Of a stretch of DNA of 47,060 bases, positions 4,574-32,527 are shown one piece after another; position 1 is the first letter of the stretch; every line of letters starts with the position of its first letter. The notes under the pieces were generated by a model. That model was not told the DNA's origin. It ran no database searches and saw nothing but the letters and a program-made list of their open reading frames with translations. A program made the translations under genes and the position numbers. Source of the stretch: an uncultured Thermotogaceae bacterium (GTDB lineage Bacteria > Bipolaricaulota > Bipolaricaulia > Bipolaricaulales > Bipolaricaulaceae); the NCBI GenBank assembly GCA_964597525.1, contig CAZQXP010000001.1, positions 1 to 47,060 on the forward strand. Reading direction: 5' to 3'.

Positions 4574-4647
<74 letters not shown>

Positions 4648-11340: not shown

Positions 11341-12174
11341 ATGAAAAGGCTTGGGTTAATCGCGGTTTTGGTGGTCGGCCTTTGGGGATTTGCTCAGGTA
11401 ACGGAGTTGGTGAGCCAAGCGGACGCCCTTTTCCAGGAGGTTTGGCTTTCTCCCTACACGCCCACTACGGCCGCAGAGCTTCGGGGAAAACTCGAGCAGG
11501 CCATCGAGCTTTATCTGCGAGCCTTGACGCTCGATCCTCAGAACACCCACATCTTGGACATGCTCGCCCGCTCCTACTACACGTTGGCGGATATTTTCCT
11601 TCCCGCGCGCGAAAAGCAAGAAACTCACGAAAAGGGCCAGCAATACGGCGAGCGCTCCCTGCGGGCCCATGAGGAGTTCGTGAGGGTGGAGAAGGAAAAA
11701 GGGTTTGTGGAGGCGGTGTACACCTCTACGGATATTGAAGCGCTCTACTGGACTTACGCCAACTGGGCGAGGAAAGTGGAGCTGGGCGGGGCATTTGGGC
11801 TCATCGCTGCCGCCCTCCGAGGGGACGATAAAAAACTCAACGCCCTTATGAGCCGGTGCATGGAGCTCGATCGGAATTACCTTGCCGGTGGCCCGCTTCG
11901 GGCCCTAGCCGGCTACCACGCGAAACACCCCTTCAGCAAGGACTACGAAAAGGCCCGGGAACTCCTCCAGGAGGCTATGGAAAACCATGGCGAGTACCTG
12001 GAGAACCTCCTCTTTTACGTGCAGTACTATCTTATGCCAAAGGAGCTTTGGTCGGAGGCCAAAGCTGTGCTGGAGAAGATCCTTGCTTCGCCCATTGAGC
12101 CCTATCCCCTCATGAATAGCTATTGCCAACTCAAAGCAGCTCAACTTCTTTTGGAGGTGCAGTCGAAGCTTTGA
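11341..12174 (+). CDS. TatT-like TPR protein (TRAP-transporter TatT component family), lipoprotein or secreted
   Basis: ATG at 11341 after GGGAGG. Signal-like MKRLGLIAVLVVGLWGFA. ALYWTYANWARK and ELDRNYLAGGPLRALAGYH blocks resemble the TatT family. No TRAP permease genes nearby. Confidence 0.5.
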   Translation: MKRLGLIAVLVVGLWGFAQVTELVSQADALFQEVWLSPYTPTTAAELRGKLEQAIELYLRALTLDPQNTHILDMLARSYYTLADIFLPAREKQETHEKGQQYGERSLRAHEEFVRVEKEKGFVEAVYTSTDIEALYWTYANWARKVELGGAFGLIAAALRGDDKKLNALMSRCMELDRNYLAGGPLRALAGYHAKHPFSKDYEKARELLQEAMENHGEYLENLLFYVQYYLMPKELWSEAKAVLEKILASPIEPYPLMNSYCQLKAAQLLLEVQSKL

Positions 12175-12184
12175 GGGAGGGGAT

Positions 12185-13423
12185 ATGCCCGCACTCCTCG
12201 TGATCCTCGATGGACTGGGCGGCCGGCCCACGGATTTTCCCCAAGGGGTGACTTGCCTGGAGCGCGCGGCGCACCCGAACCTGGATGAGCTTGCCGCCCA
12301 AGGGGCCCTCGGGCTTATGGACCCCATTGCGCCCGGGATCCGGCCCGGCTCGGACACCGCCCACCTCTCCATTTTCGGTTATGACCCCTTCAAGGTTTAC
12401 ACCGGCCGCGGTGCCTTCGAAGTTTTGGGAATTGGAATGGAGGTCCGCGGCGGCGACGTTTGCTTTCGCGCCAATTTCGCCACTGTCGAGGAACGAAACG
12501 GCCAATTCATCGTGTTGGATCGCCGCGCCGGAAGGCTCGAGGAGGGGAAGCTCCTGGAGGAGGCGGTGAACTCCGTGTCCCTGCGGGATTTTGGGGTGGA
12601 ATTCTTCTTCCGCGCTTCCACAGAACACCGCGGCGCCCTTGTCCTCCGAGGAGAAAACCTTTCCGCCGCCGTCTCCGATACCGATCCCCACGAAATCGGA
12701 GTTCCCGTGGCTGAAGCGAAGCCCTTGGAGGAAACCCCTGCCGCAAAGAGGACGGCGGAGATCCTGAACGCTTTTACCCGCCGCGTCCACGAGGCCCTGC
12801 GGGACCACCCGGTGAACAAGAAGCGAAAGGAAGAGGGGAAACTTCCGGGGAATGCCCTTCTGCTTCGCGGCGCGGCGGTGATGCCCCACTTGGAGCCCGT
12901 AACCGAGGCGTATGGAATCCGCGCGGCCTGTATTGCCGGTGGCGCCCTCTATAAGGGCGTGGCGAGGCTCGCGGGAATGGAGGTGCTTTCGGTCCCCGGC
13001 GCCACAGGCGATTTAAAAACTGATCTTCGGGCCAAAGCCCGGGCCGCCCTGGAAGCCCTCTCCTCTTTTGACCTCGTTTTCGTGCACATCAAAGGCACAG
13101 ACAATGCCGGCCACGATGGCGATGCCGAAGCCAAAAGAAAGTTCATCGAACGGGTGGACCGCGAGTTTTTCGGGATCGTGCTTGCGGATATCCCTAAGGA
13201 CCTGCACCTTTGCGTTTCTGGGGATCACACGACCCCTCCGGCGGTGCGGGAGCACACGGCGGATCCTGTTCCTGCCCTATTTTGGGGGCCTGCGGTGCGG
13301 CCGGATCGCGTCCGAACTTTCACGGAGCGCGCTGCCGCAGAAGGCGGCCTTGGCCGCTTCTCCGGAAGGCTCCTCCCCCAGCTCTTGGGCTACTGTGATT
13401 TTGGAGCCAAATTCGGAGCATAA
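12185..13423 (+). CDS. apgM: 2,3-bisphosphoglycerate-independent phosphoglycerate mutase, archaeal type
   Basis: 412 aa. LLVILDGLGGRP N-terminus, GSDTAHLSIFGYDP, VHIKGTDNAGHDGD and SGDHTTP metal-site motifs. Confidence 0.9.
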   Translation: MPALLVILDGLGGRPTDFPQGVTCLERAAHPNLDELAAQGALGLMDPIAPGIRPGSDTAHLSIFGYDPFKVYTGRGAFEVLGIGMEVRGGDVCFRANFATVEERNGQFIVLDRRAGRLEEGKLLEEAVNSVSLRDFGVEFFFRASTEHRGALVLRGENLSAAVSDTDPHEIGVPVAEAKPLEETPAAKRTAEILNAFTRRVHEALRDHPVNKKRKEEGKLPGNALLLRGAAVMPHLEPVTEAYGIRAACIAGGALYKGVARLAGMEVLSVPGATGDLKTDLRAKARAALEALSSFDLVFVHIKGTDNAGHDGDAEAKRKFIERVDREFFGIVLADIPKDLHLCVSGDHTTPPAVREHTADPVPALFWGPAVRPDRVRTFTERAAAEGGLGRFSGRLLPQLLGYCDFGAKFGA

Positions 13424-13424
13424 C

Positions 13425-13820
13425 ATGACCCTCAAGGAAATTGCCCGGGTGGTGGAGGCACAATTCCTCACCGGCGCAGATTTGGCCGATCGGGAGGTGC
13501 GCGCTGCCTTCGCCGCGGATCTCCTCTCCGACGTCCTCGCTATGGTGAGGGAGGAGGGCGTTCTCCTCATTACGGGAACGGTCACAGCCCAGGTGGTGCG
13601 GGTCGCGGAGGTCATGAATTTAGCTGGGGTTCTGTTCGTGCGCGGAAAACTTCCGGCGAAGGCCACGGTGGATTACGCTGCGTCCGCGGGGATCCCCCTC
13701 TTGGCCACGGAGCACCTCATGTACGAAACCTGCGGCCTTCTTTTTTCCCACGGGCTTCCTCCGGCCAAACGCAAGCGCCTGCCTGCGGAGCATGACGGTC
13801 CCCACCCCTCCCCGCCATAA
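13425..13820 (+). CDS. DRTGG domain protein
   Basis: ATG one nt after the apgM stop. MTLKEIARVVEAQFLTG...LLSDVLA...LLITGTVTAQVVRVAEVMNLAGVLFVRG matches the DRTGG domain layout. Confidence 0.7.
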   Translation: MTLKEIARVVEAQFLTGADLADREVRAAFAADLLSDVLAMVREEGVLLITGTVTAQVVRVAEVMNLAGVLFVRGKLPAKATVDYAASAGIPLLATEHLMYETCGLLFSHGLPPAKRKRLPAEHDGPHPSPP

Positions 13821-14268
13821 GGAAATCTTCACCGTGGTGGGCCTGGATCTGGAGCGGGCGGGCACGGTGTCCACGGAGGTGCAGCGGGTCCTGAGGAAGC
13901 TTGGGGTGGAGCCGGAGGTGGTGCGCCGGGCGGGGATTGTGTGCTTTGAGGGCGAGATGAACATGGTCCTTTACACCCCGGGGGGCCGCATTATCCTCCT
14001 CGTTTACGACGACCGAATCGAGCTCATCTTTTCCGACTTTGGGCCGGGTATTCCCGATGTGGAGCTTGCGCGGCAGCCTGGGTACTCCACGGCCCCGGAG
14101 TGGGCTAGAGAACCGGGGTTTGGCTCGGGAATGGGAATTCCCAATATGGAGGCCAATTCCGATCGCCTGGAAATCCGCTCCCGGGTGGGCGAGGGAACGG
14201 TGATCCGCGCCACGATCCTGAGGAGGCAAAGTGAAGCTGCGGGAGGTCGCGGAGAAACTGGGTCTTGA
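13792..14268 (+). CDS. HATPase-fold anti-sigma-factor-like Ser/Thr kinase (SpoIIAB/RsbW-like)
   Basis: 158 aa. DFGPGIPDVE...GFGSGMGIPNM...GTVIRATI corresponds to the G1/G2 ATP-lid boxes of GHKL ATPases. No HisKA domain. Confidence 0.65.
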   Translation: MTVPTPPRHKEIFTVVGLDLERAGTVSTEVQRVLRKLGVEPEVVRRAGIVCFEGEMNMVLYTPGGRIILLVYDDRIELIFSDFGPGIPDVELARQPGYSTAPEWAREPGFGSGMGIPNMEANSDRLEIRSRVGEGTVIRATILRRQSEAAGGRGETGS

Positions 14269-14563
14269 GTTTTTGGTGGCCGCGGCTCCGGAGGCCGAGG
14301 TGGAAGATGGTTACGTTTCCGACCTTCTTTCCGATGTCCTTGCGCATGCCCAACCCAAACAACTTTGGATCACCCATCAGCGTCACCTCAACGTGGTGGC
14401 CGTGGCCAAACTTCGGGAGCTAAGCGGGGTGGTATTCGCCCGGGGGATCCGGCCTGGACCGGAAGTGATTCGGAAGGCTCGCGAGGAGGGCCTGAACCTC
14501 CTTGTCTCCTCGGCCGACGCCTTCGAAACCGCGGGAAGGCTCCACCGCCTCCTTTTTCCATGA
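14231..14563 (+). CDS. DRTGG domain protein (second copy)
   Basis: GTG after GAGGAGG. VKLREVAEKLGLEFLV...YVSDLLSDVLAHA...VVAVAKLRELSGVVFARG parallels the protein encoded at 13425. Confidence 0.7.
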   Translation: MKLREVAEKLGLEFLVAAAPEAEVEDGYVSDLLSDVLAHAQPKQLWITHQRHLNVVAVAKLRELSGVVFARGIRPGPEVIRKAREEGLNLLVSSADAFETAGRLHRLLFP

Positions 14564-15325
14564 GGTGGTTTCGCGCCGACCTCCACATTCACTCCGCTCT
14601 CTCTCCCTGTGGGTCCTTGGCCATGTCCCCCCCGGCGGATCGTGGAGGAGGCGAGGAAAGCAGGGCTTTCTCTCATTGCTATCTGTGACCACAACGCCGG
14701 CGAAAACGGGGTTTACGTCCGCCGGCTCGCCCGCGATTCCCTCATAGTCCTCATGGGAATGGAAATCCAAACGAGCGAGGAGGTGGAGATCCTCGCCCTG
14801 TTTCCCGAGGAGGAGCCCTGCCTTGCCCTGCAGGAGGAGCTTTATGCCCTTCTTCCTCCGATTCCCAACGATCCGGAACTCTTTGGGGACCAGGTGGTCG
14901 TGGACGAAAACGAGGAGATCGTGCGCACCGTGGATAAGCTCCTCCTTTCGCCGGTGCCCCTTTCCCTGGAAGAGGTGATGAGGCGGGTGGAAGCCCGCGG
15001 AGGATTGGTGATCCCGGCCCATGTGGACCGCGTTCCCGGCGGGCTTTTGGGGGTCTTAGGCCTTTTCCCGCCGGGCGAATGGCCCGCGGTGGAAATCGCG
15101 CCGTGGACGGAGGTGGAGGAAGCCAAAAAGCGCTGGCCGGAGCTTCAGGGACGCCACCTTTTCCGTTCCTCCGATGCCCACTATCCCGAGGAGATTGGCC
15201 GTGCCTGGACGGAACTTTATCTTCGTGCCCCCACGTTTTCGGAACTTTTGCGAGCCATATTGGAGGGCGAGGGGCGTATAATCCGGCCCGGCCCACCCCT
15301 AAAGGAGGTCGGATGGAGCGCGTGA
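14560..15325 (+). pseudogene. PHP-domain phosphoesterase, reading frame broken by an apparent +1 frameshift in a C7 tract (14627..14633)
   Basis: Frame 1 from the ATG at 14560 gives MRWFRADLHIHSALSPCGSLAMSP (PHP motif I HxH) and terminates at 14688. Frame 2 continues RRIVEEARKAGLSLIAICDHNAG...PAHVDR...SSDAHYPEEIG to 15325. Removing one C restores a single ORF. Confidence 0.7.
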
Positions 15326-15768
15326 AAGAGCGGGTTTTGGAGCTTGTGCGCCCCTATGCGGGAAAGCCGACAGAACTTATCCAAGCCCTGCATCGCGTGC
15401 AGAACGCGTTGGGATACCTTCCCCGGGAAGCCCAGGAGATCGTGGCTGAGGCGTTGGGCGCCCCTCTTTCCCAGGTGCGGGGCGTGGTGACCTTTTACCA
15501 CTTTTTCCGCACCAAACCCGCGGGGAAGCACACAATCCGCGTGTGTTTAGGAACAGCTTGTCATGTGCGTGGTGGGGAACGCGTCCTTTCTAGCTTAAAG
15601 GAGGAGCTCGAGGTGGAAGTGGGCGAAACCTCCGCGGACGGGAAATTTACGTTGGAGGTCGCCCGGTGCCTGGGCTGCTGCGGACTTGCTCCGGTGATGA
15701 TGATCGACGAGGAGGTCTATGGCCGGCTGGACCCCAAAAAAGCCCGGGAGATCGTGCGGAAGTTCTGA
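15313..15768 (+). CDS. NuoE/HoxE/HydC-like [2Fe-2S] subunit (copy 1)
   Basis: AAGGAGG RBS. Four Cys in CLGTACHVRG...CLGCCGLAPVMMID, the thioredoxin-like 2Fe-2S motif of NuoE. Confidence 0.9.
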   Translation: MERVKERVLELVRPYAGKPTELIQALHRVQNALGYLPREAQEIVAEALGAPLSQVRGVVTFYHFFRTKPAGKHTIRVCLGTACHVRGGERVLSSLKEELEVEVGETSADGKFTLEVARCLGCCGLAPVMMIDEEVYGRLDPKKAREIVRKF

Positions 15769-16316
15769 TGGTGGAGGATTTAGCTTTTCACCTGGCAGAT
15801 TTGGTGGAAAACGCCGTGCGCGCCGGGGCCAAGAACGTGACGGTCGAGCTCATCCGGGAAGGCCGGGATTTCCTCATTCGCGTTTCCGATGATGGGGTGG
15901 GCATGGACGGGGAGACGAAGGTGCGGGCGGCGGACCCGTTTTTCACCACCAAACCCGGCCGGAGGATCGGTTTGGGGCTCGCGTTCTTGCGGCAAACCGC
16001 AGAAGAGCTCGGCGGGTCCTTCCGGCTGGAGTCCGCTTCCGGGAAAGGGACGCTTGTGGAAGCCCGCATCCCCTGGGATCATCCGGACCGGCCGCCTCTG
16101 GGCGATCTTCCCGGAACGCTCGTCCCCCTCATCGTTACTTCGTCCGTTGAATTCCGCCTTCTCTTCCGGGATGATCGGAGGGAGTGGACCCTAGATACCC
16201 AGGAGATCAAACGGGCCTTGGGAGAAGTGCCGCTTACAGATCCCGAGGTTCTTTCTTTTTTGGAGCGCGAGATCCGCGAGGGGCTTCGGGCTTTGGGCTG
16301 GAAGGAGGAGGGATGA
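15768..16316 (+). CDS. Histidine-kinase-like ATPase domain protein (no HisKA or sensor domain)
   Basis: TGATG junction with the upstream gene. N box LVENAVRAGA, G1 VSDDGVGMD, G2 GLGLAFLRQ, then GKGTLVEARIPW. Confidence 0.7.
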   Translation: MVEDLAFHLADLVENAVRAGAKNVTVELIREGRDFLIRVSDDGVGMDGETKVRAADPFFTTKPGRRIGLGLAFLRQTAEELGGSFRLESASGKGTLVEARIPWDHPDRPPLGDLPGTLVPLIVTSSVEFRLLFRDDRREWTLDTQEIKRALGEVPLTDPEVLSFLEREIREGLRALGWKEEG

Positions 16317-16681
16317 AGCTTGAGGAGCTCCGGAAGATCCGGGAGCGGGCGGAGGCGGAAATGAGGCTTCGGGCCGGCCAGGCCCGGGTGAAAATTGTGG
16401 TGGGAATGGGCACTTCCGGTATCGCCGCCGGCGCCCGCCAGGTCCTCCGCGCCATCCTCGATGAGGTGGCCCAGCGGAACCTCCGGGATGTCCTCGTCAC
16501 CCAAACCGGCGAAAAGGGCCTTTCCGCAAAAGAACCGCTCGTGGAGGTCCATGAACCCGGCAGGGTCACGATCTACGGCGACGTGGATGAGGCCACCGCC
16601 CGGAGGATCGTGGTGGAGCACGTCATCCACGGTCGAATCGTGGAGGATCACCTCGTGGAGCTGCGGGAGGTGCCGACGTGA
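16313..16681 (+). CDS. Thioredoxin-like [2Fe-2S] ferredoxin-fold protein (HydD-like) with no cysteines
   Basis: ATGA junction. VKIVVGMGTSGIAAGA...VTQTGEKGLSAKEPLVEV aligns with the N-terminal domain of the NuoF-like protein at 19750, but all four ligand Cys are replaced and the 122 aa contain no Cys. Confidence 0.7.
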   Translation: MKLEELRKIRERAEAEMRLRAGQARVKIVVGMGTSGIAAGARQVLRAILDEVAQRNLRDVLVTQTGEKGLSAKEPLVEVHEPGRVTIYGDVDEATARRIVVEHVIHGRIVEDHLVELREVPT

Positions 16682-17379
16682 TCACCCTCACCATCGACGG
16701 GATCAAGGTGCAGGCCGAGCCTGGGGAGACCATCCTTCAGGCGGCCAAGCGCGCGGGAATCCGTATCCCCACCCTCTGTTACCTAGAAGGACTTTCTCCG
16801 CGGGGAGCCTGCCGCCTCTGCCTGGTGGAGATACGGAACTGGGGTGGGAGATTGGTGCCTTCCTGCGCCACGCCCGCGCAAGAAGGTCTTGAGGTCGTGG
16901 CCAACTCCGAGCGGCTGCGCGAACTTCGCCGCACGATTCTCGAGATGATCTTTGCCGAGCGGAATCACATTTGCGCCTTCTGCGTCTCCAACGGGCATTG
17001 CGAGCTACAGAACCTCGCTATGGAGCTCGGGATGGATCACGTGCGGCTTCCTTACCGCTGGCCCCTTTTGCCCCTGGACCTCAGCCACGCCAAATACGGG
17101 ATTGACCACAACCGCTGTGTGCTTTGTGGCCGGTGTGTGCGGGCCTGCGCGGAGGTGGAGGGTGCCATGACCTGGGGCTTCTCCGGCCGGGGAATTTTCA
17201 CCCTGGTGGAGGCGGATTTGGGCGACCCCTGGGGGAAGTCCAAGACCTGTACAGGGTGCGGAAAATGCGTGCAGGCCTGTCCCACCGGCGCCCTCTTTGA
17301 GAAGGGCAAAGCCACGAGCGAGCAAGTAAAGCGGCCGGAGATCCTCGTGGAGGTCACAGAAAGGAGGCCCCGTGCCTAA
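16678..17379 (+). CDS. hoxU: HoxU/HydA-like Fe-S subunit (NuoG N-terminal type: [2Fe-2S] + [4Fe-4S] clusters)
   Basis: GTGA junction. LCYLEGLSPRGACRLCLVE...SC, then HICAFCVSNGHCELQ, CVLCGRCVRAC and CTGCGKCVQACP. Confidence 0.9.
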   Translation: MITLTIDGIKVQAEPGETILQAAKRAGIRIPTLCYLEGLSPRGACRLCLVEIRNWGGRLVPSCATPAQEGLEVVANSERLRELRRTILEMIFAERNHICAFCVSNGHCELQNLAMELGMDHVRLPYRWPLLPLDLSHAKYGIDHNRCVLCGRCVRACAEVEGAMTWGFSGRGIFTLVEADLGDPWGKSKTCTGCGKCVQACPTGALFEKGKATSEQVKRPEILVEVTERRPRA

Positions 17380-17899
17380 GCTTCGCGTGGCCACTGTGTG
17401 GTTTTCCGGGTGCTCCGGCTGCCACATGTCCTTTTTGGACCTGGACGAGCGCCTCTTGGAATTCGCCGAGCGCGCGGAGCTCGTGTTCTCCCCCATCGTG
17501 GACCTGAAGGAATTCCCGGAAGACGTGGATGTGGTGCTGATCGAGGGCGCGGTAGGGAACACCGAACACCTTCGGATGCTCTTGGAGATCCGCAAGAAAT
17601 CCAAAATCCTTGTGGCCTTTGGCGATTGTGCGGTGACTGGAAACGTGGCGAGCCTGCGCAACCCCCTTCCGCGCGAAGAGGTCCTGCACGCTGTTTATGG
17701 GAAAAACGATCCGCCGGGCTTGGAGGAAGGGGAGGTTCCCAAGTTCCTTCCTCAGGCGCTTCCCCTCCACGCGGTGGTTCCCGTGGATTATTTCCTGCCC
17801 GGGTGCCCTCCTTCGGCGGACAGGATCTGGACGTTCCTCCGGCCTGTCCTCCTTGGGCAGAAACCAGTCCTTTCCGGGCCGGATCTGAAATTTGGGTGA
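17372..17899 (+). CDS. hoxY: [NiFe] hydrogenase small subunit, short group-3 type
   Basis: 175 aa. [22 protein letters not shown] and LPGCPP proximal-cluster cysteines. No Tat signal. Confidence 0.9.
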
Positions 17900-17909
17900 A
17901 GGAGGCGGC

Positions 17910-19334
17910 GTGCAGAAATTGCATATCCCGGTGACGCGTATCGAGGGACACGGGCTTATCACCGTGCATTTGGATTCCGATGGCCGGGTAAGGGAGGCCC
18001 GCTTCCACGTCACAGAGGTGCGGGGCTTCGAGCGATTTTGCGTGGGCCGCATGCTCTGGGAGATGCCGGCCCTCACCGCCCGGATCTGTGGGATCTGCCC
18101 GGTTTCCCACCTCCTCTGCTCGGCCAAGGCCTGCGACGCGATTTTGGCCGTGCGCATCCCCCGGCCTGCAGAGAAGCTCCGCCGGCTCATGAACCTGGGG
18201 CAGATCGTGCAGTCCCACGCCCTTTCCTTTTTCCACCTTTCCTCGCCCGATCTTCTTTTGGGTTGGGATACAGACCCCGCAAAACGCCACATCTTTGGTG
18301 TGGCCGCTTTCGATCGGAAGCTCGCCCTCGATGGGATTCGCCTGCGGGCGTTCGGCCAGGAGATCATCGAGATCCTCGGTGGCAAGAGAATTCACCCAGC
18401 TTGGGCCGTTCCCGGTGGGGTGAATAACCCCTTGACCGAGGAAGGCCGGGACCGCATTGCCGCCAAACTCCCCGAGGCCATGCGCATTGCCCAAGATGCC
18501 CTCGCTCTTTACGAGAAGAACGTGGCCAAATGGGCCGAAGAGATCGAGCATTTCGGGAAATTCCCCAGCCTTTTCATGGCCCTCGTGGGCGAGGATGGCT
18601 CCTGGGAGCACTACAGCGGCCGCATCCGCTTCGTGGACGCGGAAAGAAGGATCGTGGCCGATGGCCTGGATCCCGCGCGGTACCAGGACTACATCGGTGA
18701 GGCGGTGGAAAGCTGGTCCTATTTGAAATTCCCGTACTACAAGCCCTACGGGTACCCGGAGGGAATGTACCGGGTGGGCCCGTTGGCCCGGCTCAACTGC
18801 TGTGAGCGCTTCGGGACAAAGCTTGCGGATGAGGCTCTTTCCCGTTTCCGGGCCGCAGCGGACGGAAAAGCGGTTACCGCCTCCTTCCACTACCACTGGG
18901 CCCGGCTCATCGAGATCCTGGGAGCTCTGGAAAAGATCGAGGAGCTCCTCTCTGACCCAGAGATCCTCTCCCCAAGAGTGCGGGCGGAAGCGGGGGTGAA
19001 CGAACTCGAGGGCGTGGGCGTTCACGAGGCCCCCCGGGGAACTCTTTTCCACCATTACCTCGTGGACGAAACCGGGGTGATCCAGAGGGTGAACCTGATC
19101 GTTTCCACGGGCCACAACAATTTGGCCATGAACCGCACGGTGGCTCAAATCGCCGAGCACTGGCTTTCCGGCCGGGAAATCACGGAGGGGCTCCTTAACC
19201 GCCTCGAGGGCGGGATCCGCGCCTACGATCCCTGTCTTTCCTGCTCGGTGCACGCGGTGGGAGAGATGCCCCTGCGGGTCCTTCTCCTTGGGCCGGATGG
19301 GGAGATCCTCGCGGAAAGGACGCGCGGCGCATGA
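17910..19334 (+). CDS. hoxH: [NiFe] hydrogenase large subunit, group-3 (bidirectional/NAD-linked) type
   Basis: GTG at 17910 after [24 protein letters not shown] and C-terminal DPCLSCSVH, followed by a ~26-residue tail that would be removed by the maturation protease. Confidence 0.95.
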
Positions 19335-19753
19335 TCCTCGTTATTGGCCTGGGACACCCCTTACGCAGGGATGACGGGGTAGGGCTTTGGATTGCCCAAA
19401 ACCTCGAGGAGCGGGAGGGCGTGAAGGTTTTGGGAGCTCAAGTCCTTTCGCCCGAGCTTTTACCCCAGATCCTCGCCGCAGATTTGGTGATTTTCGTGGA
19501 TGCCCGAAAGAGCGCGGGGCCGGTGCGCTGGGAACCTCTGAAGCCCGGGCCCTGCCCGCCCCTTTCCCACTCCATGACCCCTCAAGGCCTCATTTCCTGG
19601 GCAGCCAAGCTCTTCGGCACGGCTCCGGAGGCTTGGCTTGTAACCGTGCCCGCGCGGGACTTTTCCCTGGGGGAGGGGCTTTCGCCCCGCACGCGGCTGG
19701 CTGCGGAAGCGCTGCTCCGGCGCCTGCGGGCCTACCTCGGAGGTGGGGAATGA
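19331..19753 (+). CDS. hoxW: Hydrogenase maturation endopeptidase
   Basis: ATGA junction. [17 protein letters not shown] and VIFVDA motifs of the HycI/HoxW family. Confidence 0.85.
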
Positions 19754-21540
19754 GACGGCTCTCGGTCCTCCTTTGCTCCGGTTCGGCGTGCCAATCCGCG
19801 GGAGCCTTGGCCCTAAAACAGGCCCTTGTGGAAGCCCTCACCGCGGAGGGCCTTACCGAAGAGGTGCAAATTGTGGAAACCGGGTGCATGGGGCCCTGCG
19901 AGCTTGGGCCCATTCTCCTTGTCTATCCGGACGGCGTCTACTACGTGCGGGTGAAGCCCCGCGATGTTCAGGAAATCGTGCGGGAGCATTTCCTCAAAGG
20001 GAGGCCGGTGCGGCGGCTCCTTTGGACCGCGCCGGCGCCCGAGCCGCGCACGATCCCATTTTTCGCCCGCCAAAAGAAAGTTGTCCTCGAAAACTGCGGC
20101 CAGATCGATCCAGAAAAGATCGAGGAATACATCGCTGTGGGCGGCTATGAAGCCTTGGCCAAGGTCCTCACCCAAATGACCCCGGAGGAAGTGATTTCCG
20201 AAATCAGCCGCTCAGGCTTGCGGGGACGGGGTGGCGCAGGTTTTCCTACCGGCAAAAAATGGCAGGCCGTGCGGGAGGCCACGGGAAATCCGAAATACGT
20301 GATCTGCAACGGCGATGAAGGCGATCCCGGCGCCTTCATGGATCGGGCGATCCTCGAGGGCGATCCCCACAGCGTCCTTGAGGGCATGGCCATCGCCGCC
20401 TACGCCGTGGGCGCAGAAAAGGGCTACATCTACGTACGCGCGGAATACCCCTTAGCGGTAAAACGCCTGGAGGTAGCCATCGCGCAAGCCCGAAAGCTTG
20501 GGCTCCTTGGGCCAAGGATTTTTGACACGGACTTTTCCTTCGACGTGGAGCTGAGGATCGGCGCCGGGGCTTTTGTGTGCGGCGAGGAGACCGCCCTCAT
20601 CGCCTCCATTGAAGGGAAGCGGGGCGAGCCCAGGCCCCGTCCGCCTTATCCTGCGACCTCTGGCCTTTTTGGCAAACCCACCCTCATCAACAACGTGGAG
20701 ACCTTTGCCAATGTACGGCATATCATCCTCAAAGGGGCGGATTGGTTTTCCCAGATGGGTACAGCCACAAGCAAGGGCACAAAAGTTTTTGCTCTTGCGG
20801 GGCAGGTGAAAAACACCGGCCTTGTGGAAGTGCCCATGGGAATCACGCTGCGGGAGCTCATCTTCGAGGTGGGGGGAGGGGTTCCCGAGGGCCGGAAGTT
20901 TAAAGCTGTACAGATCGGCGGCCCCTCCGGCGGATGCCTTCCCGAAAGCCTCCTCGATGTGCCCATCGATTACGAGTCCCTGAAACAATACGGGGCCATC
21001 ATGGGCTCGGGCGGAGTGATCGTCCTCGATAATACTTCTTGCATGGTTAACGTAGCCAAGTTTTTCCTAGAGTTCACCGCGGATGAGTCCTGCGGAAAGT
21101 GCGTCCCTTGCCGGGTGGGATTGCGCATGATGCTCGGCATTTTGGAGCGGATCGTCCGGGGAGAAGGAACCGAAGAGGACCTCACCCGGTTGGAGGAACT
21201 AGGAAAACTCATCCAAGCGGCGTCTTTGTGTGGGCTTGGCCAAACGGCGCCCAATCCCGTTCTCTCCACCCTCCGCTACTTCCGGGAGGAGTACCTCGCC
21301 CATATCCGGGATAAGGCTTGTCCCGCCGGGGTTTGTCCGGATCTCATCCACTACGAGATCATTTCGGAGGCTTGTCGGGCCTGTGATCTTTGCCGGCGGG
21401 CTTGCCCCACGGGCGCGGCTCAAGGCACTCCCCGAAACCCGCCCTATCGCATCGTCCAAGAGCTTTGCATTCGCTGCGGCGCGTGCCTTGAGGCCTGCCC
21501 GTTCGGCGCGGTGGTGAAGATCCCGGGTCGAAAGGGGTGA
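19750..21540 (+). CDS. NuoF/HoxF/HydB-like FMN and NAD(P)H-binding subunit, full Bfu-type architecture (copy 1)
   Basis: ATGA junction. N-terminal thioredoxin-like domain with four Cys ([10 protein letters not shown]...[12 protein letters not shown]). [39 protein letters not shown]...LCGLGQT. C-terminal [12 protein letters not shown] + [12 protein letters not shown]. Confidence 0.9.
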
Positions 21541-22001
21541 CCGTGGACAAAAAGGCGATCCTTGAGAAATTTCCGCGCTCGCCCGATGTGCTTTTAGCCC
21601 TTTTGCACGAGCTTCAGCGGGCCAATCCCCGAAATTATTTGACGCCGGAGGACCTCGCCCTTGTCGCAGAATACCTGAACCTTCCCCTTTCCCGCGTGCG
21701 CGACGCCGTCACGTTCTACACCATGTTCAGCCTCCGCCCGCGCGGAAAACATGTGATCCGCGTGTGTGATTCCCCCAATTGCCACCTCTTTGGGGCCTGG
21801 TCCGTGGTGGAGCAGCTCAGAAAGCTTTTGGGGATTGAAGTAGGGGAAACCACGCCCGATGGCCTTTTCACCCTGGAGCTCACGAGCTGTCTTGGCGCGT
21901 GCGGGGTGGCTCCGGTGATGATGGTGGATGACGAGGTTTTTGGGAACCTCACGCCCGAGCGGGTGCGGGAGATTTTGGCCCGGCTGAAGGAGGAGGGATG
22001 A
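21537..22001 (+). CDS. NuoE/HoxE-like [2Fe-2S] subunit (copy 2)
   Basis: GTGA junction. [11 protein letters not shown]...[14 protein letters not shown] four-Cys motif. Confidence 0.85.
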
Positions 22002-23602
22002 GGCCCGCGCGCACCCATGTGCTTGTGGCCGTGGATGAGGAAGCCCGCCTGGCCGGGGTGGAGGGGGTTCTCGCGGCCCTCCGGGCGGCCCTCGATCGGT
22101 ACGGCCTTGCGGAGGAAGTCCAGGTCGTAGAAACCGGCACATTGGGCGTTTCCGGCCAAGGCGTGGTTTTAGCGGTTTATCCCGATGGCGTTTTCTATGG
22201 CCGCGTTCGTCCGGAGGACGTGGAGGAGATCGTGGAGGTTCATCTCCTAAAAGGCCGGCCGGTGGAGCGGTTGCGCCTTCCCACAGCTGCTCCGGTAGCC
22301 CGCCCTGGCGAAATCCTCGGCCGGCAGACCCGCGTGGTCCTCCGCAACGTAGGGGTGATCGATCCCGAAAATATCGAGGAATACATCGCCCAAGGCGGCT
22401 ACGAGGCCTTGGCCAAGGCTCTCTTTGAGATGAAGCCGGAGGAGGTGATCGAGGAGATCCGCCGTTCGGGGTTGCGCGGCCGCGGCGGCGCAGGTTTCCC
22501 CACCGGGCTCAAATGGGCCGCGGTCCGCTCCGCACCCGGCTCGGAAAAGTACGTGATCTGCAACGCCGATGAAGGCGAACCCGGAACCTTCAAGGACCGC
22601 CTCATCCTCGAGGGCGATCCTCACAGGATTTTGGAGGCCATGATCATCGCCGGCTACGCCGTGGGCGCAAAGCTCGGGATCATCTACGTCCGCGGCGAAT
22701 ATAGCCTATCTATCCGGCGTCTCACGAAGGCCATTGAGCAAGCCCGCGCGTATGGGCTTTTGGGAGAAAACATCTTGGAAAGTGGTTTTTCCTTCGATAT
22801 TGAGGTTCGGCCGGGCGCAGGCGCCTATGTGTGCGGCGAGGAAACGGCCCTCATCGAGTCCTTGGAGGGAAAGCGCGGCTGGCCCAGGATCCGCCCGCCT
22901 TATCCCGTCACCTACGGCCTCTGGGGGAAGCCCACGGTGGTGAACAACGTGGAAACCCTCGCGAACGTGCCGGATATCCTCCTCCGCGGAGCAAGCTGGT
23001 ACCGCACCTTGGGCACACCTACCTGCCCGGGGACGAAGGTCTACACGATTCTTGGGCACGTGCGTTTTCCTGGTTTGGTGGAAGTGGAGATGGGGACGCC
23101 CTTGCGCGTTCTTATCTACGAGCTTGGCGGTGGGATTCGGGATGGGAGGGCCCTCAAGGCCGTGCTCATCGGTGGAGCGGCTGGCGCTTTCCTCACCTCC
23201 CGGGATCTTGATGTGCGCCTGGATTTTGACTCCTTGGCGGGCAAAGCTGCGGTCCTCGGCTCCGGTGCGGTCCTCGTCATGGATGAGACGGCCTGCATGG
23301 TGGATATGCTCGGGAGCATCCTGCGTTTCTTTCGGCACGAATCCTGCGGGCAATGCGTTCCTTGCCGGGTGGGTACGGATCTTTTGGTGCGGATCTTGGA
23401 GGGGATCCGCCGGGGGATGGCCAACGAAGAAGTTCTCTCACGCATGGTGGAGATTGTGGAGACGATGAGGCTTTCCTCCCTTTGCCCTCTGGGGCAATCC
23501 CTGGCTTTGCCTGTGCGGTCGGCTTTGGAGAATTTCCGGGAGGAGTTCCTTGCCCATCTTGCGGCGCAACCCTGCCCCGTTTGTTCTGGGAGGCCTCAAT
23601 GA
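21998..23602 (+). CDS. NuoF/HoxF-like FMN and NAD(P)H-binding subunit, reduced architecture (copy 2)
   Basis: ATGA junction. [39 protein letters not shown]...LCPLGQS. The N-terminal thioredoxin-like domain is conserved in sequence but has no Cys. No C-terminal 2x[4Fe-4S] domain. Confidence 0.9.
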   Translation: MRPARTHVLVAVDEEARLAGVEGVLAALRAALDRYGLAEEVQVVETGTLGVSGQGVVLAVYPDGVFYGRVRPEDVEEIVEVHLLKGRPVERLRLPTAAPVARPGEILGRQTRVVLRNVGVIDPENIEEYIAQGGYEALAKALFEMKPEEVIEEIRRSGLRGRGGAGFPTGLKWAAVRSAPGSEKYVICNADEGEPGTFKDRLILEGDPHRILEAMIIAGYAVGAKLGIIYVRGEYSLSIRRLTKAIEQARAYGLLGENILESGFSFDIEVRPGAGAYVCGEETALIESLEGKRGWPRIRPPYPVTYGLWGKPTVVNNVETLANVPDILLRGASWYRTLGTPTCPGTKVYTILGHVRFPGLVEVEMGTPLRVLIYELGGGIRDGRALKAVLIGGAAGAFLTSRDLDVRLDFDSLAGKAAVLGSGAVLVMDETACMVDMLGSILRFFRHESCGQCVPCRVGTDLLVRILEGIRRGMANEEVLSRMVEIVETMRLSSLCPLGQSLALPVRSALENFREEFLAHLAAQPCPVCSGRPQ

Positions 23603-24927
23603 GGATCACCTTTGCCGGTGCCGCGGGAACCGTCACGGGCTCCTGCTTCTTCGTGGAAACCAAAGGCACGAAAATCCTTGTGGATTGCGGTCTTTTCCAG
23701 GGGCTTCCGGAGATGGAAGCCCGGAATTTCGAGCCCTTCCCTTTTGATCCCGCGGAAGTGGACTGGCTCATCCTCACCCATGGGCATCTGGATCACTTGG
23801 GACTTGTTCCGCGTCTAGTGCGGGAGGGCTTTCAGGGAAAAGGGATTTGTACGGTTCCCACGAGGGATATCGCCCAAGTCATGCTCATGGATGCGGCCCG
23901 CATCCAGGAAGAGGAGGAAGACGGAGCCCTCTACACCGTGGAGGACGCCCTCGATTCTCTGGATCGCCTCACCCATACCGTGGAGTACGGGGATGAGGTG
24001 GAGCTTGGGAGGGGGGTGCGCGCTAAATTCCACGATGCGGGGCACATCTTGGGCGCTGCGTTTGTGGAAATTCAAGCGGAGGGGAAGACCGTGGTCTTCT
24101 CCGGCGATCTGGGAAACCGCGGAAAACCATTGGTAGAGGATCCCTCCTATCCGCCCAAGGCGGACATCCTCATTTTGGAGTCCACATACGGCGATCGCCT
24201 CCATCCGCCCCTTGAGGAATCCGTGGAGGAGCTGCGGCGGGTGATCGTGGAGACCTTGAGGATGGGCGGGAACGTGGTGATCCCCTCCTTTGCCCTCGAG
24301 CGCACCCAGGAGGTTCTCTACATCCTCTTTCGCCTGTGGAAGGAGCGGAAAATTCCGCGCACGAAAATCTTCCTGGACTCACCGCTTGCGACCCAGGCCA
24401 CCAAGATTTTTGAGCGCTACACGGAGCGATTCCCCGAGCCGGCAAGGAAGCTTTTCCGTAAAAAGGAGGATCCCTTTGACTTCGAGCTTTTGGAGTACAC
24501 CCTGACAAAAGCCGCCTCGAAAAAGATCGCCGAGGAGGAAGGGGTGATCATCATTGCCGGATCAGGGATGTGCACCGGCGGCCGCATCCTCTACCACCTT
24601 CGGGCGAATCTCCCTCGGCCCGAGTCCTCCATTGTATTCGTCGGCTACCAAGCCGAAGGGACCTTGGGAAGGGCCATTTTGGATGGTGCCCCTGAGGTGG
24701 AGATTTTGGGGAGCATCGTGCCCGTGCGGGCGGGGATCTGGAGGATCGAGGGCCTTTCCGCCCACGCGGACCAGGAAATCCTTGTGGACTGGGCCCTCCA
24801 TGCCGATCCGGGCCAGGTGTTCCTCGTGCATGGTGAGCCCCAGGCCCTCGGGGCTTTGGCCGCGCGCCTCACCAGCCTCGGTTACTCCGTGCATATCCCG
24901 GCATGGCACGAGACGGTGGAGCTGTGA
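23599..24927 (+). CDS. Metallo-beta-lactamase fold, beta-CASP family RNA-processing nuclease-like protein
   Basis: ATGA junction. LILTHGHLDHLG (HxHxDH), FHDAGHILGAA, ESTYGDR, and C-terminal GLSAHAD...VHGE beta-CASP motifs. Confidence 0.85.
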   Translation: MRITFAGAAGTVTGSCFFVETKGTKILVDCGLFQGLPEMEARNFEPFPFDPAEVDWLILTHGHLDHLGLVPRLVREGFQGKGICTVPTRDIAQVMLMDAARIQEEEEDGALYTVEDALDSLDRLTHTVEYGDEVELGRGVRAKFHDAGHILGAAFVEIQAEGKTVVFSGDLGNRGKPLVEDPSYPPKADILILESTYGDRLHPPLEESVEELRRVIVETLRMGGNVVIPSFALERTQEVLYILFRLWKERKIPRTKIFLDSPLATQATKIFERYTERFPEPARKLFRKKEDPFDFELLEYTLTKAASKKIAEEEGVIIIAGSGMCTGGRILYHLRANLPRPESSIVFVGYQAEGTLGRAILDGAPEVEILGSIVPVRAGIWRIEGLSAHADQEILVDWALHADPGQVFLVHGEPQALGALAARLTSLGYSVHIPAWHETVEL

Positions 24928-25838
24928 AGGTGGCGGTCCTGGGAAGCCTCAATATGGACCTCGTCACCGTGGTGGAGCGCTTGCCCAGGCCAGGGGAAAC
25001 TGTTTTGGGACGAAATTTCGCCCGTTATCCAGGCGGAAAAGGCCTGAACCAGGCGGTGGCTGCAGCCCGCTTGGGCGCGGAGGTTGCCCTTTTTGGCCGT
25101 GTGGGGAACGACGCTTTCGGTGAGGAGCTTTTGGCCGTAGCCCGGGAAAACGGGGTGGACGTAAGCTATGTGGAAAAGGTTCCAGGACAGACGGGTATTT
25201 CCGCGATCCTTGTGGACCCGCAGGGCGAAAATATGATCGCCTACGCTCCCGGTGCTAATTACTCCGTGGATGAGGCCTACCTTGGCCGCGTTCTTCCTGA
25301 GCTTTCCGCTGCGGATGTCCTTCTTTTGCAGTTGGAGATCCCGCTTACCGCTGTGGTTGCCACCCTCAGCCGTCTTCCCCAGGATCGGCCTTTGGTCGTG
25401 CTCAACCCCTCTCCGGCACAAGATCTGAATGCTCTTCCTCTGCGCCGTGTGGATGTACTGGTCCCGAACGCCCAGGAATTTCAGATCCTCAGCGGTTGGT
25501 CAGGGAACCCCGAGGAGTTGGAAAGGATGGGGAGGGCCTTTTTGGCGCGAGGTATCAAGGCCCTGGTGGTCACCGCTGGGGCCGATGGCGCGTATTTGGT
25601 GGAGCCTGAAGGGCTCACACATTTTCCCGCATTCTCGGTGACGGCGGTGGATGTGACCGGCGCGGGCGATGCTTTCTGCGCCGCTTTGGCGGTGAAGTTG
25701 GGAAGCGGCCGCGGCCTCTATGAGGCCATCGGCTTCGCCAATGCTGCGGCCGCGCTTGCGACCACGAAAAAAGGGGCCGTCCCCAGCCTTCCTACCCTTG
25801 CGGAAGTTCAGTCCTTCCTTTCCCGCTTCGCCCAATAG
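24924..25838 (+). CDS. rbsK: Ribokinase (PfkB family)
   Basis: GTGA junction. VLGSLNMDL, GGKGLNQAVAAARLG, and DVTGAGDAF anion-hole/catalytic motif. Confidence 0.8.
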   Translation: MKVAVLGSLNMDLVTVVERLPRPGETVLGRNFARYPGGKGLNQAVAAARLGAEVALFGRVGNDAFGEELLAVARENGVDVSYVEKVPGQTGISAILVDPQGENMIAYAPGANYSVDEAYLGRVLPELSAADVLLLQLEIPLTAVVATLSRLPQDRPLVVLNPSPAQDLNALPLRRVDVLVPNAQEFQILSGWSGNPEELERMGRAFLARGIKALVVTAGADGAYLVEPEGLTHFPAFSVTAVDVTGAGDAFCAALAVKLGSGRGLYEAIGFANAAAALATTKKGAVPSLPTLAEVQSFLSRFAQ

Positions 25839-25921: not shown

Positions 25922-25955
25922 ACGCCCCGGCCGGGGCGTAACCTTTTTCTTTCCC
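25922..25955 (+). terminator. Rho-independent terminator candidate closing the long plus-strand operon
   Basis: Perfect 18-nt palindrome ACGCCCCGGCCGGGGCGT (25922..25939) followed by the T-rich tail AACCTTTTTCTTTCCCTTTT. Confidence 0.55.
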
Positions 25956-26017: not shown

Positions 26018-26911
26018 ATGTTGCGTTCCTCTTTGGTTTTGGAGGTTACGAGCGCCGTGCTTGGGGCGGCTCGGGAATTTCTAGCAAAAGAGGGCTTCGT
26101 TGAACTTCTTCCCGTGATCCTTGCGCCCGTCACGGATCCCTTGAGGACCACACCGGACCGGGCCATCGTTTCCGCATACGGCCAGGATTGGTACCTCACC
26201 CGCAGCATGATCTTCCATAAGCAGGCAGCTGTGCGGATTTGCCCAAAAATCTTCTCCTTTTCCCCTAACATTCGGTTGGAACCGGCTGAGCGGGCCAAAA
26301 CCGGCCGCCACCTTTTCGAGTTCGTCCAGCTGGATCTCGAGGTGCGAGAAGCCACAAGGGACGACGTGATGGATTTGGGCGAGCGCCTCCTCCTTTATGT
26401 CCTTTCCCAAATCCGGCGGGATTTCTCCCGGGAGCTAGCGAGGATTGGGCGGGAGCTTCCCGAGTATTCCCGGCCTTTCCCGCGCATCGCCTGGCATGAA
26501 GCCAAAGAAGCGTTCGGCCCGGATTTCGAGGAGCCTCTTTCCCGCCAAAGCAAAGGCCCCGTATGGATTGTGGATTTTCCCATCGATCAGCGGGAGTTTT
26601 ACGACCGGGAGGATCCGGAACGCCCGGGAATTTTGCGGGACATGGACCTCCTTTATCCGGAGGGGTTCGGCGAAGCCCTCTCCGGAGGCGAGCGGGAATA
26701 TCTCCCCGAACGCATTCGCCTGCGCATCCTCCGCCAAGGCCTTGATCCCGCAGCCTATACTGGGCTCATCGAGCTTGCGAAAGAAGGATTGCCGCCCTCC
26801 GCAGGCTTTGGCATCGGGGTAGAGAGGCTCGTGCGCTTTATCCTTGGGCTTTCCCATGTGGGCGAGGTTCGGCTTTTCCCGCGGGTTCCGGGCGTGCCGG
26901 CTATGCTTTAG
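26018..26911 (+). CDS. Class II aaRS catalytic-core paralogue of the AsnRS/AspRS type without an anticodon-binding domain (archaeal-type asparagine synthetase A-like)
   Basis: 297 aa. Strong RBS AAAGGAGG. Motif 2 FSPNIRLEPAERAKTGRHLFEFVQLDLEV. LSGGEREY. Motif 3 GFGIGVERLVRF. No OB-fold N-terminal domain. Confidence 0.7.
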   Translation: MLRSSLVLEVTSAVLGAAREFLAKEGFVELLPVILAPVTDPLRTTPDRAIVSAYGQDWYLTRSMIFHKQAAVRICPKIFSFSPNIRLEPAERAKTGRHLFEFVQLDLEVREATRDDVMDLGERLLLYVLSQIRRDFSRELARIGRELPEYSRPFPRIAWHEAKEAFGPDFEEPLSRQSKGPVWIVDFPIDQREFYDREDPERPGILRDMDLLYPEGFGEALSGGEREYLPERIRLRILRQGLDPAAYTGLIELAKEGLPPSAGFGIGVERLVRFILGLSHVGEVRLFPRVPGVPAML

Positions 26912-30998: not shown

Positions 30999-31342
30999 AC
31001 GCGGATGCCCCGTTTGATCTCGATGAGGTTGTGGAGTTTGGGCCGGAACAGCTCCCGGAAGACCTCGAAGGCCGCCTCCGGGATCACCTTCTCGCCGCAG
31101 GTGAACACATCCAGGGCCACGTACTTGTGCTCGGGCCAGGTATGCAAGGAGATGTGGGATTCGGCGATTACGGCCACACCGGAAACGCCGTGGGGGTTAA
31201 AGGTGTGGACCTGAACGTCGATCAAGGTGGCACCGCTTCTTCGGACGGCCTCCACGAGGGCCTTCCGGATCGCCTCCGGGTTGTTGAGGTTTTCCTGGCA
31301 TTCCCAAAGCTCCACCACCAAGTGCCTCCCGAGCTCCCGCAT
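30995..31342 (-). CDS. speH: S-adenosylmethionine decarboxylase proenzyme (small pyruvoyl type)
   Basis: 115 aa. Self-cleavage and active-site block VAVIAESHISLHTWPEH. Confidence 0.9.
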   Translation of the reverse strand: MRELGRHLVVELWECQENLNNPEAIRKALVEAVRRSGATLIDVQVHTFNPHGVSGVAVIAESHISLHTWPEHKYVALDVFTCGEKVIPEAAFEVFRELFRPKLHNLIEIKRGIRV

Positions 31343-31370
31343 TGTTCACCTCCTCCCCGGGCAAGTTTTG

Positions 31371-32518: not shown

Positions 32519-32527
32519 CCTCACCCC

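Follow-up and report, generated by a model that had tools for sequence, protein, structure and literature searches.

The 47,060-nt window analysed here (the whole stretch of DNA, whose positions serve as coordinates throughout) carries a run of 18 close-packed, co-oriented genes at 11341-25838, all on the + strand, that includes the structural genes of a [NiFe] hydrogenase. The locus probably represents a conserved cytoplasmic hydrogenase operon in which a Hox-type catalytic core is joined to two flavoprotein subunits of electron-bifurcating (Bfu) type, a pair that would couple NAD(H) and ferredoxin, with a second flavoprotein pair of NADH type encoded alongside. The predicted enzyme is a chimera, because its large subunit HoxH and its electron-transfer subunit HoxU are of Hox type and its flavoprotein NuoF1 is of HydB type and lies outside the canonical HoxF proteins. 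The host belongs to Candidatus Bipolaricaulota (Acetothermia); it is uncultured and probably thermophilic.

How much energy fermenters, acetogens and syntrophs gain is set by electron-bifurcating hydrogenases, whose mechanism, which uses a single flavin mononucleotide (FMN), is still under debate. The window locus suggests that an ordinary group 3d Hox module and a short HoxU can go together with a Bfu flavoprotein core, and it would extend predicted NiFe-Bfu enzymes to the Bipolaricaulota, a phylum widespread in the subsurface and in digesters whose hydrogenase is now annotated as a plain NAD-linked Hox enzyme. Re-reading Bipolaricaulota 'Hox' as likely bifurcating would alter the ferredoxin/NADH balance that metabolic reconstructions predict for the phylum. 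Less familiar is the second pair, a conserved pair of non-bifurcating type that is found beside Bfu cores whose catalytic subunits are of three kinds and is lacking in Acetomicrobium mobile; if it belongs to the enzyme, it would offer a direct test of how a cell chooses between coupled and uncoupled H2 metabolism.

Hox catalytic core and HydB/HydC-type flavoprotein pair

Gene identities were taken from an open reading frame (ORF) listing together with Pfam and NCBIfam profiles, and the identities and positions of all 16 genes named in a first-pass annotation of this DNA were borne out. The catalytic module consists of HoxU (16678-17379), a short BfuA-equivalent electron wire that passes the NCBIfam equivalog NF005745 (340.8 bits against a cut-off of 333), the [NiFe] small subunit HoxY (17372-17899; PF01058, 99.5 bits), the group 3d-type large subunit HoxH (17910-19334; PF00374) and the hydrogenase maturation endopeptidase HoxW (19331-19753; TIGR00072, 63.3 bits against a cut-off of 47.45). 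HoxH contains the nickel-site motifs RICGIC (L1) and DPCLSCSVH (L2) and a C-terminal tail for cleavage by HoxW, and is 55.6% identical to the HydL subunit of A. mobile and 61-65% identical to canonical group 3d HoxH proteins. Bootstrap values here and below come from our own neighbour-joining (NJ) trees built with Kimura distances, which are distance trees and not maximum likelihood trees. A split that separates MvhA, the HoxH of H. thermoluteolus and A. mobile HydL from all other large subunits received 100% bootstrap support, with the window HoxH nested among the canonical group 3d proteins, and a grouping of A. mobile HydL with the Bipolaricaulota HoxH proteins received 0%. HoxU, at 233 aa, aligns only to residues 4-208 of A. 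mobile HydA (692 aa); it retains all the cluster ligands of the A1-A4 region, for one [2Fe-2S] and three [4Fe-4S] clusters, and lacks the A5 cluster and C-terminal domain that mark a long BfuA. Judged by these sequence features, HoxH is an ordinary canonical group 3d protein and HoxU is a true short HoxU.

The flavoprotein NuoF1 (19750-21540; Pfam Complex1_51K, NADH_4Fe-4S, Fer4 and 2Fe-2S_thioredx) matches A. mobile HydB over its whole length (E 1.6e-264, 63% identity), and its cysteines match the four ligands of B1, the four of the N-terminal [2Fe-2S] cluster B5 and the eight of the C-terminal 2x[4Fe-4S] clusters B3/B4. Bifurcating beta subunits have been reported to carry A/E232 together with M234, F367 and the motif GGPSG (Losey et al. 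2020, PMC7311640), and NuoF1 has A232/M234, F367 and GGPSG, which makes it bifurcating type by these published criteria. The B2 site of such subunits is described as comprising C438, C476, C531 and C536 with a conserved His525 that non-bifurcating homologues lack (PMC9304861); NuoF1 has C438, H525, C531 and C536, and V in place of C476. Residue F182 of the same account could not be fitted to the numbering of the other cited residues and was not used. The canonical HoxF proteins aligned, all of 512-543 aa, are without the C-terminal eight-cysteine ferredoxin domain (seven were checked column by column). Cyanobacterial HoxF has the B1 and B5 ligands and lacks those of B3/B4 and the B2 Cys/His site; the C438/H525/C531/C536 site is likewise absent from the verrucomicrobial HoxF checked and is kept in two others (Armatimonadota and Acidobacteriota). 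In a tree of the core region of F subunits, canonical HoxF formed a clade with 100% bootstrap support that excludes NuoF1, and a grouping of HoxF with NuoF1 received 0%. NuoF1 was also considered as an ordinary HoxF to which a domain had been added, and this was rejected because the core region alone places it outside the canonical HoxF clade.

The partner subunit NuoE1 (15313-15768; PF01257, 177 bits) is a [2Fe-2S] protein of HydC/BfuC type that retains all four cysteines, in C-x4-C and C-x3-C motifs, expected for the C1 [2Fe-2S] cluster. Its best NCBIfam match is HoxE, yet at 164.8 bits against a cut-off of 224, and in trees it clusters with HydC-type E subunits and not with those of HoxE or E2 type. 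Among PDB entries, the best matches of HoxH, HoxU, NuoF1 and NuoE1 are all chains of the A. mobile NiFe-HydABCSL complex, that of NuoE1 being HydC. The first-pass annotation had proposed a hybrid locus and had looked to trees of HoxH and NuoF to decide the matter. They gave a divided answer, HoxH falling within the ordinary group 3d enzymes and NuoF1 outside ordinary HoxF; the chimera itself is real, with a group 3d HoxH beside a NuoF1 that carries the [2Fe-2S] and 2x[4Fe-4S] domains of HydB, while the supposed novelty of its scaffold and the proposed gene order did not stand, as follows.

Conservation of the locus and the second flavoprotein pair

HoxH homologues of 72-94% identity came from metagenome-assembled genomes (MAGs) of Candidatus Bipolaricaulota/Acetothermia, and the next tier, at 61-67%, comprised the canonical Hox enzymes of cyanobacteria, Chloroflexota, Acidobacteriota and Verrucomicrobiota. 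All window proteins were compared by tblastn with 80 fetched loci. The order TPR-apgM-DRTGG-HATPase-DRTGG-PHP-E1-HisK-HydD-HoxU-Y-H-W-F1-E2-F2-betaCASP-kinase is found complete in Bipolaricaulota contigs of sufficient length (L003, L004, L007 and L009), down to a HoxH identity of 72%; L011 has the same order except that the ribokinase and, upstream, the TPR gene are missing, and L001, L002, L006 and L012 show matching partial orders. Since the order is kept in every Bipolaricaulota contig that is long enough, it represents a lineage trait and not chance. The remaining 68 loci are mostly of the form hoxE-F-U-Y-H(-W). Homologues of the DRTGG, HATPase and PHP genes occur in none of these canonical group 3d loci, as the first-pass annotation had held for Hox operons in general, and a HydD homologue was detected in L072 only. 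Several of the MAGs concerned bear the label 'uncultured Thermotogaceae', 'Thermotoga sp.' or 'Thermotogae', with a Bipolaricaulota-type locus in L004, L011 and L012 and a relative of it in L072; these bins may be mislabelled or contaminated.

A. mobile NiFe-HydABCSL, the characterised NiFe-Bfu enzyme (PDB 7T2R/7T30), has been biochemically shown to bifurcate (Feng et al. 2022, PMC8880783), and the only additional genes mentioned in that publication are HydD, HydP and HisK. Its locus was recovered by a metagenome scan with HydL (contigs L092 and L115, 100% identity) and reads DRTGG-HATPase_c_2-HydS-like-DRTGG-PHP-HydC-HisK-HydD-HydB-HydA-HydS-HydL-HydP. From DRTGG1 through NuoF1, all window genes are matched there at 34-63% identity (DRTGG1 40%, HATPase_c_2 47%, HisK 41% and HydD 48%). 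The two loci share [NiFe] small and large subunits wired to a HydB/HydC core, with colinear HydB proteins whose Fe-S ligands are the same except at C476, together with accessory DRTGG, HATPase, DRTGG, PHP, HisK, HydD and protease genes. Unlike the window locus, that of A. mobile encodes a HydA of 692-707 aa with a NuoG-like N-terminus and molybdopterin-type domains where the window has the 233-aa HoxU, a HydL that branches outside the clade of the window HoxH, a HydB gene that precedes hydA where NuoF1 follows HoxW, a HydS-like sensor gene that has no window counterpart, and a HydD with three cysteines where that of the window has none; it has no second E/F pair. The C-terminal part of A. mobile HydA (L092:7265-9388) matches Pfam Molybdopterin and Molybdop_Fe4S4, and not the [FeFe] H-cluster domain. 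The HydS-like gene encodes a 442-aa homologue of sensory [FeFe] hydrogenases (L092:1550-2878; Fer4, Fe_hyd_lg_C and PF04060) and lies between the HATPase and second DRTGG genes. In the Synergistota-type contigs L095 and L097, two NiFe-Bfu-like clusters stand in tandem (...B-A-S-L-P then C-D-B-A...).

Because A. mobile has these accessory genes too, along with an equal set of structural subunits in another order, the combination of regulator scaffold and [NiFe] core is not new, contrary to what had been supposed from the window. The Bipolaricaulota locus is also already in print: 'Hox E,F,U,H,Y' along with a presumed [Fe] hydrogenase, 'Hym AB', were reported for Ca. Bipolaricaulis anaerobius (Hao et al. 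2018, PMC6092417), a homologue from which is among the NuoF1 matches (P0194), and the literature annotates the locus as a plain Hox with a HymAB-type reading (PMC6092417; PMC9469722). The suggestion that hoxUYHW occupies the place of hydA likewise fails, since such clusters usually run C-K-D-B-(E2-F2)-A (K denoting HisK) and the catalytic block of the window precedes B-E2-F2. NiFe-Bfu enzymes have been placed only in Synergistetes and Halorhabdus, in a survey from which metagenomes were excluded (Schut et al. 2022, PMC9304861), so Bipolaricaulota would be an addition to that distribution. With canonical group 3d Hox enzymes the window locus shares the HoxH family, the size and family of HoxU and HoxY, and the HoxW protease, whereas those loci have the order hoxE-F-U-Y-H, contain neither the regulators nor a second flavoprotein pair, and encode a HoxF of about 520-545 aa without the C-terminal 2x[4Fe-4S] domain. 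With [FeFe]-HydABC/Bfu clusters (PMC9304861) it shares the BfuB/BfuC core and the string C-HisK-HydD-B with DRTGG/HATPase/PHP upstream, which was observed beside FeFe HydA in L089 and beside Fdh (formate dehydrogenase) in L087 and L090; unlike them, it has HoxUYH as its catalytic module.

The second flavoprotein pair, whose existence the first-pass annotation had also noted, is real and consists of NuoE2 (hereafter E2; 21537-22001; PF01257, 164 bits), a NuoE-like [2Fe-2S] subunit, and NuoF2 (F2; 21998-23602), a NuoF-like flavoprotein, each belonging to a clade of its own. NuoF2 has T/K at 232/234, Y at 367 and GGAAG, without the N-terminal cysteines or the C-terminal ferredoxin domain; the four cysteines of B1 are present, as are C438, H525 and a CPVC motif, and C476 is absent. 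Non-bifurcating beta subunits are characterized by T/S232, K/S/A234, Y367, the lack of GGPSG and fewer Fe-S domains (PMC7311640), and by all of these sequence criteria NuoE2/NuoF2 can be assigned to the non-bifurcating NADH type. In the core-region tree the F2 clade received 100% bootstrap support, and the 20 F subunits of T/K-Y type formed one clade that is split, also with 100% support, from all 48 of A/M type. NuoE2 falls in a separate E2 clade whose members pair with short F subunits. NuoF2 thus shows the sequence marks published for the group of Hyd1B of Syntrophomonas wolfei and HydB of Syntrophus aciditrophicus, with T/K for A/M, Y for F, no GGPSG and fewer Fe-S domains (PMC7311640). 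These non-bifurcating HydB homologues without B3/B4 allow H2 to be formed with NADH alone when H2 pressure is low (PMC7311640; PMC11406978), and the short beta subunit is there the sole flavoprotein and works with an [FeFe] HydA, whereas NuoF2 has a bifurcating-type pair and a [NiFe] core as its neighbours.

Pairs of E2/F2 type recur beside bifurcating-type pairs in NiFe, FeFe and formate dehydrogenase clusters of many lineages. The order is (regulators)-C-K-D-B-HoxU-Y-H-W-E2-F2 in L082, L083 and L088, and C-D-[HydB-GltD fusion]-HoxU-Y-H-W-E2-F2 in L091 (Ca. Bipolaricaulis sp.). With formate dehydrogenase (Fdh), L087 and L090 have regulators-C-K-D-B-E2-F2-FdhA-formate transporter; with [FeFe] subunits, L089 has regulators-C-K-D-F-E2-F2-[FeFe] HydA-HydEFG and L086 (Syntrophorhabdaceae) has K-D-E2-F2-HydA-C-[B-GltD]-HydA. 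L085 (Caldisericia) reads PHP-C-K-D-[B-GltD]-E2-F2, and L084 (Dictyoglomus) has E2-F2 alone. At least 12 A. mobile-type metagenome contigs (L123, L124, L136, L148, L149, L152, L156, L158, L163, L164, L166 and L170), have the order HATPase-DRTGG-PHP-C-K-D-B-E2-F2-HydA(long)-HydS-HydL-HydP, in which E2-F2 is inserted between HydB and HydA. Each of the eight multi-gene E2/F2 loci among L082-L091 encodes one F subunit of A/M-F-GGPSG type and one of T/K-Y type, the first F of L085 having A/K instead of A/M; in the twelve A. mobile-type contigs the first F has A/M, F and GGPMG. The pair is absent from A. mobile itself and from the other Synergistota loci, and a search of the literature yielded no description of a second NuoE/NuoF pair beside a Bfu core. 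HydB-GltD fusions of about 1015-1026 aa (NuoF-like, Fer4_20 and Pyr_redox_2) take the place of HydB in the NiFe and FeFe clusters of L085, L086, L091, L110 and L117, the first three of which also hold an E2/F2 pair.

Proposed mechanism and alternative explanations

Under the mechanism proposed here, HoxH/HoxY would oxidize or evolve H2 after maturation of HoxH by HoxW, and HoxU would carry the electrons to HydB (NuoF1), with its B1 cluster and FMN. Together with HydC (NuoE1), the oxidation of two H2 would be coupled reversibly to the reduction of NAD+ at the FMN and of ferredoxin via B3/B4, so that the overall mode would be electron bifurcation or confurcation, as in A. mobile NiFe-HydABCSL. 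From the likeness to that enzyme we consider it rather likely that HoxUYH and HydB/HydC couple H2, NAD(H) and ferredoxin in this way. NuoE2/NuoF2, with FMN and an NADH site, an N3-type [4Fe-4S] cluster, a [2Fe-2S] cluster, complex-I-like residues and no clusters on the ferredoxin side, might connect NADH to the same HoxUYH independently of ferredoxin, and with less assurance the pair may be regarded as an alternative or added diaphorase module on that core. Two electron entry points, A3 and A4, have been described on BfuA (PMC9304861), and a second docking site is therefore conceivable, although this is speculation. What the analysis shows for the Bipolaricaulota locus is its gene content, cofactor ligands, clade memberships and conservation; that the enzyme bifurcates, how its subunits assemble and what the second pair does are predictions from sequence.

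Several observations weigh against a bifurcating enzyme built in this manner. At the B2 site of NuoF1, C476 is replaced by V, and all its close relatives, as well as L081 and L082, have V or T at this position. Canonical HoxF proteins, too, carry A/M, F and GGPSG, among them proteins that lack B3/B4 (L014, L015, L020, L031, L063 and L066), so these marks are necessary and not sufficient for bifurcation. The HydB-type assemblage of NuoF1, A. mobile HydB and FeFe HydB was recovered as a single split in only 34% of NJ bootstraps. HoxH resembles non-bifurcating Hox enzymes more closely than it does HydL. HoxU has neither the A5 cluster nor the large domain at the C-terminus of A. mobile HydA, so the docking of HoxYH may differ. 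In Dictyoglomus E2-F2 has no neighbouring Bfu cluster, and the pair can therefore exist without one. All genes of the locus also appear to be co-transcribed, which would argue against regulated switching between the two modules.

Some of these points bear directly on the published alternative, an ordinary non-bifurcating NAD(P)-linked HoxEFUYH accompanied by an unrelated NuoEF-like 'HymAB' pair as given for Ca. Bipolaricaulis anaerobius. The nesting of HoxH in group 3d, the passing of the equivalog by HoxU, the HoxE match of NuoE1, the missing B2 ligand of NuoF1 and the literature annotation (PMC6092417; PMC9469722) would all be expected of such an enzyme. It accords poorly, however, with a NuoF1 placed outside the canonical HoxF clade with 100% support and carrying an eight-cysteine C-terminal ferredoxin domain found in no canonical HoxF aligned, with a C438/H525/C531/C536 site absent from the cyanobacterial and verrucomicrobial HoxF checked (although two others keep it), with a NuoE1 under the HoxE cut-off, and with a gene order that is not hoxEFUYH and regulators that occur in 0 of 68 canonical loci, and we regard it as unlikely. 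More improbable again is that the close packing merely reflects genome compaction, the regulators, hydrogenase, second pair, beta-CASP gene and kinase being independent syntenic units. The window is compact as a whole, promoter- and terminator-like sites occur at chance frequency, and the beta-CASP, ribokinase, apgM and TPR genes adjoin the locus only in Bipolaricaulota; yet the regulators, C-K-D, B and E2F2 travel together across distant lineages and catalytic modules, and nine of the junctions are 4-nt start/stop overlaps.

The Bfu-type enzyme favoured here can also be set against a single two-flavin super-complex in which E2F2 forms a permanent third module, perhaps at the A4-side entry of HoxU/BfuA, giving two NAD(P)H sites, unlike the single-FMN A. 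mobile enzyme. B-E2-F2 is contiguous in the window and in many NiFe, FeFe and Fdh loci, all E2-paired F subunits belong to one clade, the branching of F2 within Bipolaricaulota resembles that of F1 (judged by eye from the NJ tree), and the two entry points on BfuA (Schut et al., PMC9304861) would accommodate such an arrangement. Nevertheless, the proposal draws on gene neighbourhood and trees, A. mobile and the other Synergistota loci manage without the pair, hoxUYHW separates E2F2 from HydB in L082, L083 and L088, and the Dictyoglomus pair stands alone; the super-complex is a possibility that we regard as doubtful. Only tentatively can it be suggested that Bfu-type enzymes regularly have E2/F2 as a physical partner, one that A. 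mobile happens to lack, many NiFe, FeFe and Fdh Bfu enzymes then being two-flavoprotein machines. If so, a single core could run in either a ferredoxin-coupled or an NADH-only mode, or two flavin sites could take part in one mechanism.

Accessory genes, junctions and neighbouring features

Upstream of the catalytic module lie genes for two putative regulators with DRTGG domains (13425-13820 and 14231-14563; PF07085, 30.1 and 31.2 bits against a cut-off of 25.2), a small anti-sigma/serine kinase-like HATPase_c_2 protein (13792-14268; PF13581 and PF02518, both marginally below cut-off), a PHP phosphoesterase (14560-15325), the HATPase_c protein known as 'HisK' in hyd clusters (15768-16316; PF02518, 60.5 bits) and the Trx-like HydD (16313-16681). 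Together, the DRTGG, HATPase, PHP, HisK and HydD genes make up the non-structural complement that normally accompanies Bfu hydrogenases in their clusters. The first-pass annotation had given such a neighbourhood as the signature of bifurcating [FeFe] hydrogenases in Thermotoga and Thermoanaerobacter; among the loci compared here, regulator genes were seen beside Bfu-type cores in L089 (FeFe), in L087 and L090 (Fdh) and in the A. mobile locus, and the literature searched offered nothing useful that links DRTGG with hydrogenase. The PHP gene is frameshifted: as sequenced, its ORF halts at 14688, leaving a 42-codon ORF and a frame-shifted remainder, and a run of seven C at 14627-14633 is one base longer than in relatives L003, L004, L007 and L012. 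Removal of one C restores a 254-aa PHP/PHP_C protein, and the interruption is either a homopolymer error of sequencing or assembly or a strain-specific pseudogene.

HydD had been described as a thioredoxin-like ferredoxin, which does not hold, for the protein contains no cysteine and is not an Fe-S ferredoxin; it has no Pfam match, whereas A. mobile HydD (three cysteines) matches PF01257. The cysteine-free form (GMGTSG...TGEKGLS) is found in all Bipolaricaulota loci and several other lineages (L001-L012, L082-L091), and the three-cysteine form (GMGTCG...TGCIGxC) in Synergistota and A. mobile-type metagenome loci (L092-L105, L110, L117, L123-L170). The idea that the cysteine-free form tracks E2F2 was rejected, as loci of the L123 type pair E2F2 with three-cysteine HydD, although in some lineages the cysteine-free form may still be linked to the two-flavoprotein design.

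ORFs read stop to stop leave no intergenic gap above 10 nt in the 18-gene run, in a window of about 60% G+C. The nearly continuous overlap of junctions described in the first-pass annotation is correct, although its count of seven 4-nt overlaps should be nine (nine positions were listed). Besides these nine ATGA/GTGA overlaps there is one TGATG overlap, at 15768, and other junctions overlap by 8, 13, 29 and 38 nt. Gaps separate the TPR gene from apgM (10 nt), apgM from DRTGG1 (1 nt) and HoxY from hoxH (10 nt); within the last of these, TGAAGGAGG provides the Shine-Dalgarno sequence GAAGGAGG 5' of hoxH. In a scan of the locus the numbers of promoter-like and terminator-like sites equalled shuffle expectation, which argues neither for nor against a single transcript, and an Rfam scan found no RNA element inside it. 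One well-placed hairpin at 25922-25939 on the + strand, 84 nt past the last stop codon, is GC-rich, resembles a terminator and has a T-rich tail; it is weak evidence because the number of such sites equals that expected by chance.

The run opens with a TAtT/TPR lipoprotein-like gene (11341-12174; Pfam TAtT and TPR) and apgM, for a cofactor-independent phosphoglycerate mutase (12185-13423; Pfam PhosphMutase and Metalloenzyme), and closes with genes for an RNase-like beta-CASP metallo-beta-lactamase (23599-24927; Pfam Beta-Casp, Lactamase_B and RMMBL) and a PfkB/ribokinase-family kinase (24924-25838; PF00294, 227 bits). All four are probably co-transcribed passengers outside the hydrogenase system. 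In another lineage (L081, 8077-12224) apgM lies directly upstream of hydC-hydB-bfuA, and adjacency of apgM to a hydrogenase is therefore not confined to the closest relatives of the window.

Elsewhere in the window, a polyamine cluster on the - strand (29332-34211) encodes an arginase-family protein, spermidine synthase, a deoxyhypusine-synthase homologue, pyruvoyl arginine decarboxylase and the branched-chain polyamine synthase BpsA, an enzyme typical of thermophiles. A 297-aa protein encoded at 26018-26911 (+) consists solely of a class II aminoacyl-tRNA-synthetase core (tRNA-synt_2) and may be an EpmA- or AsnA-type paralogue; its gene is convergent with one for a 787-aa GAF-PAS-GAF-GGDEF protein (26908-29271, -), the two overlapping by 4 nt at their ends. 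The genes for tRNA-Asn(GTT) and tRNA-Ile(GAT) at 4498-4647 abut with zero spacer.

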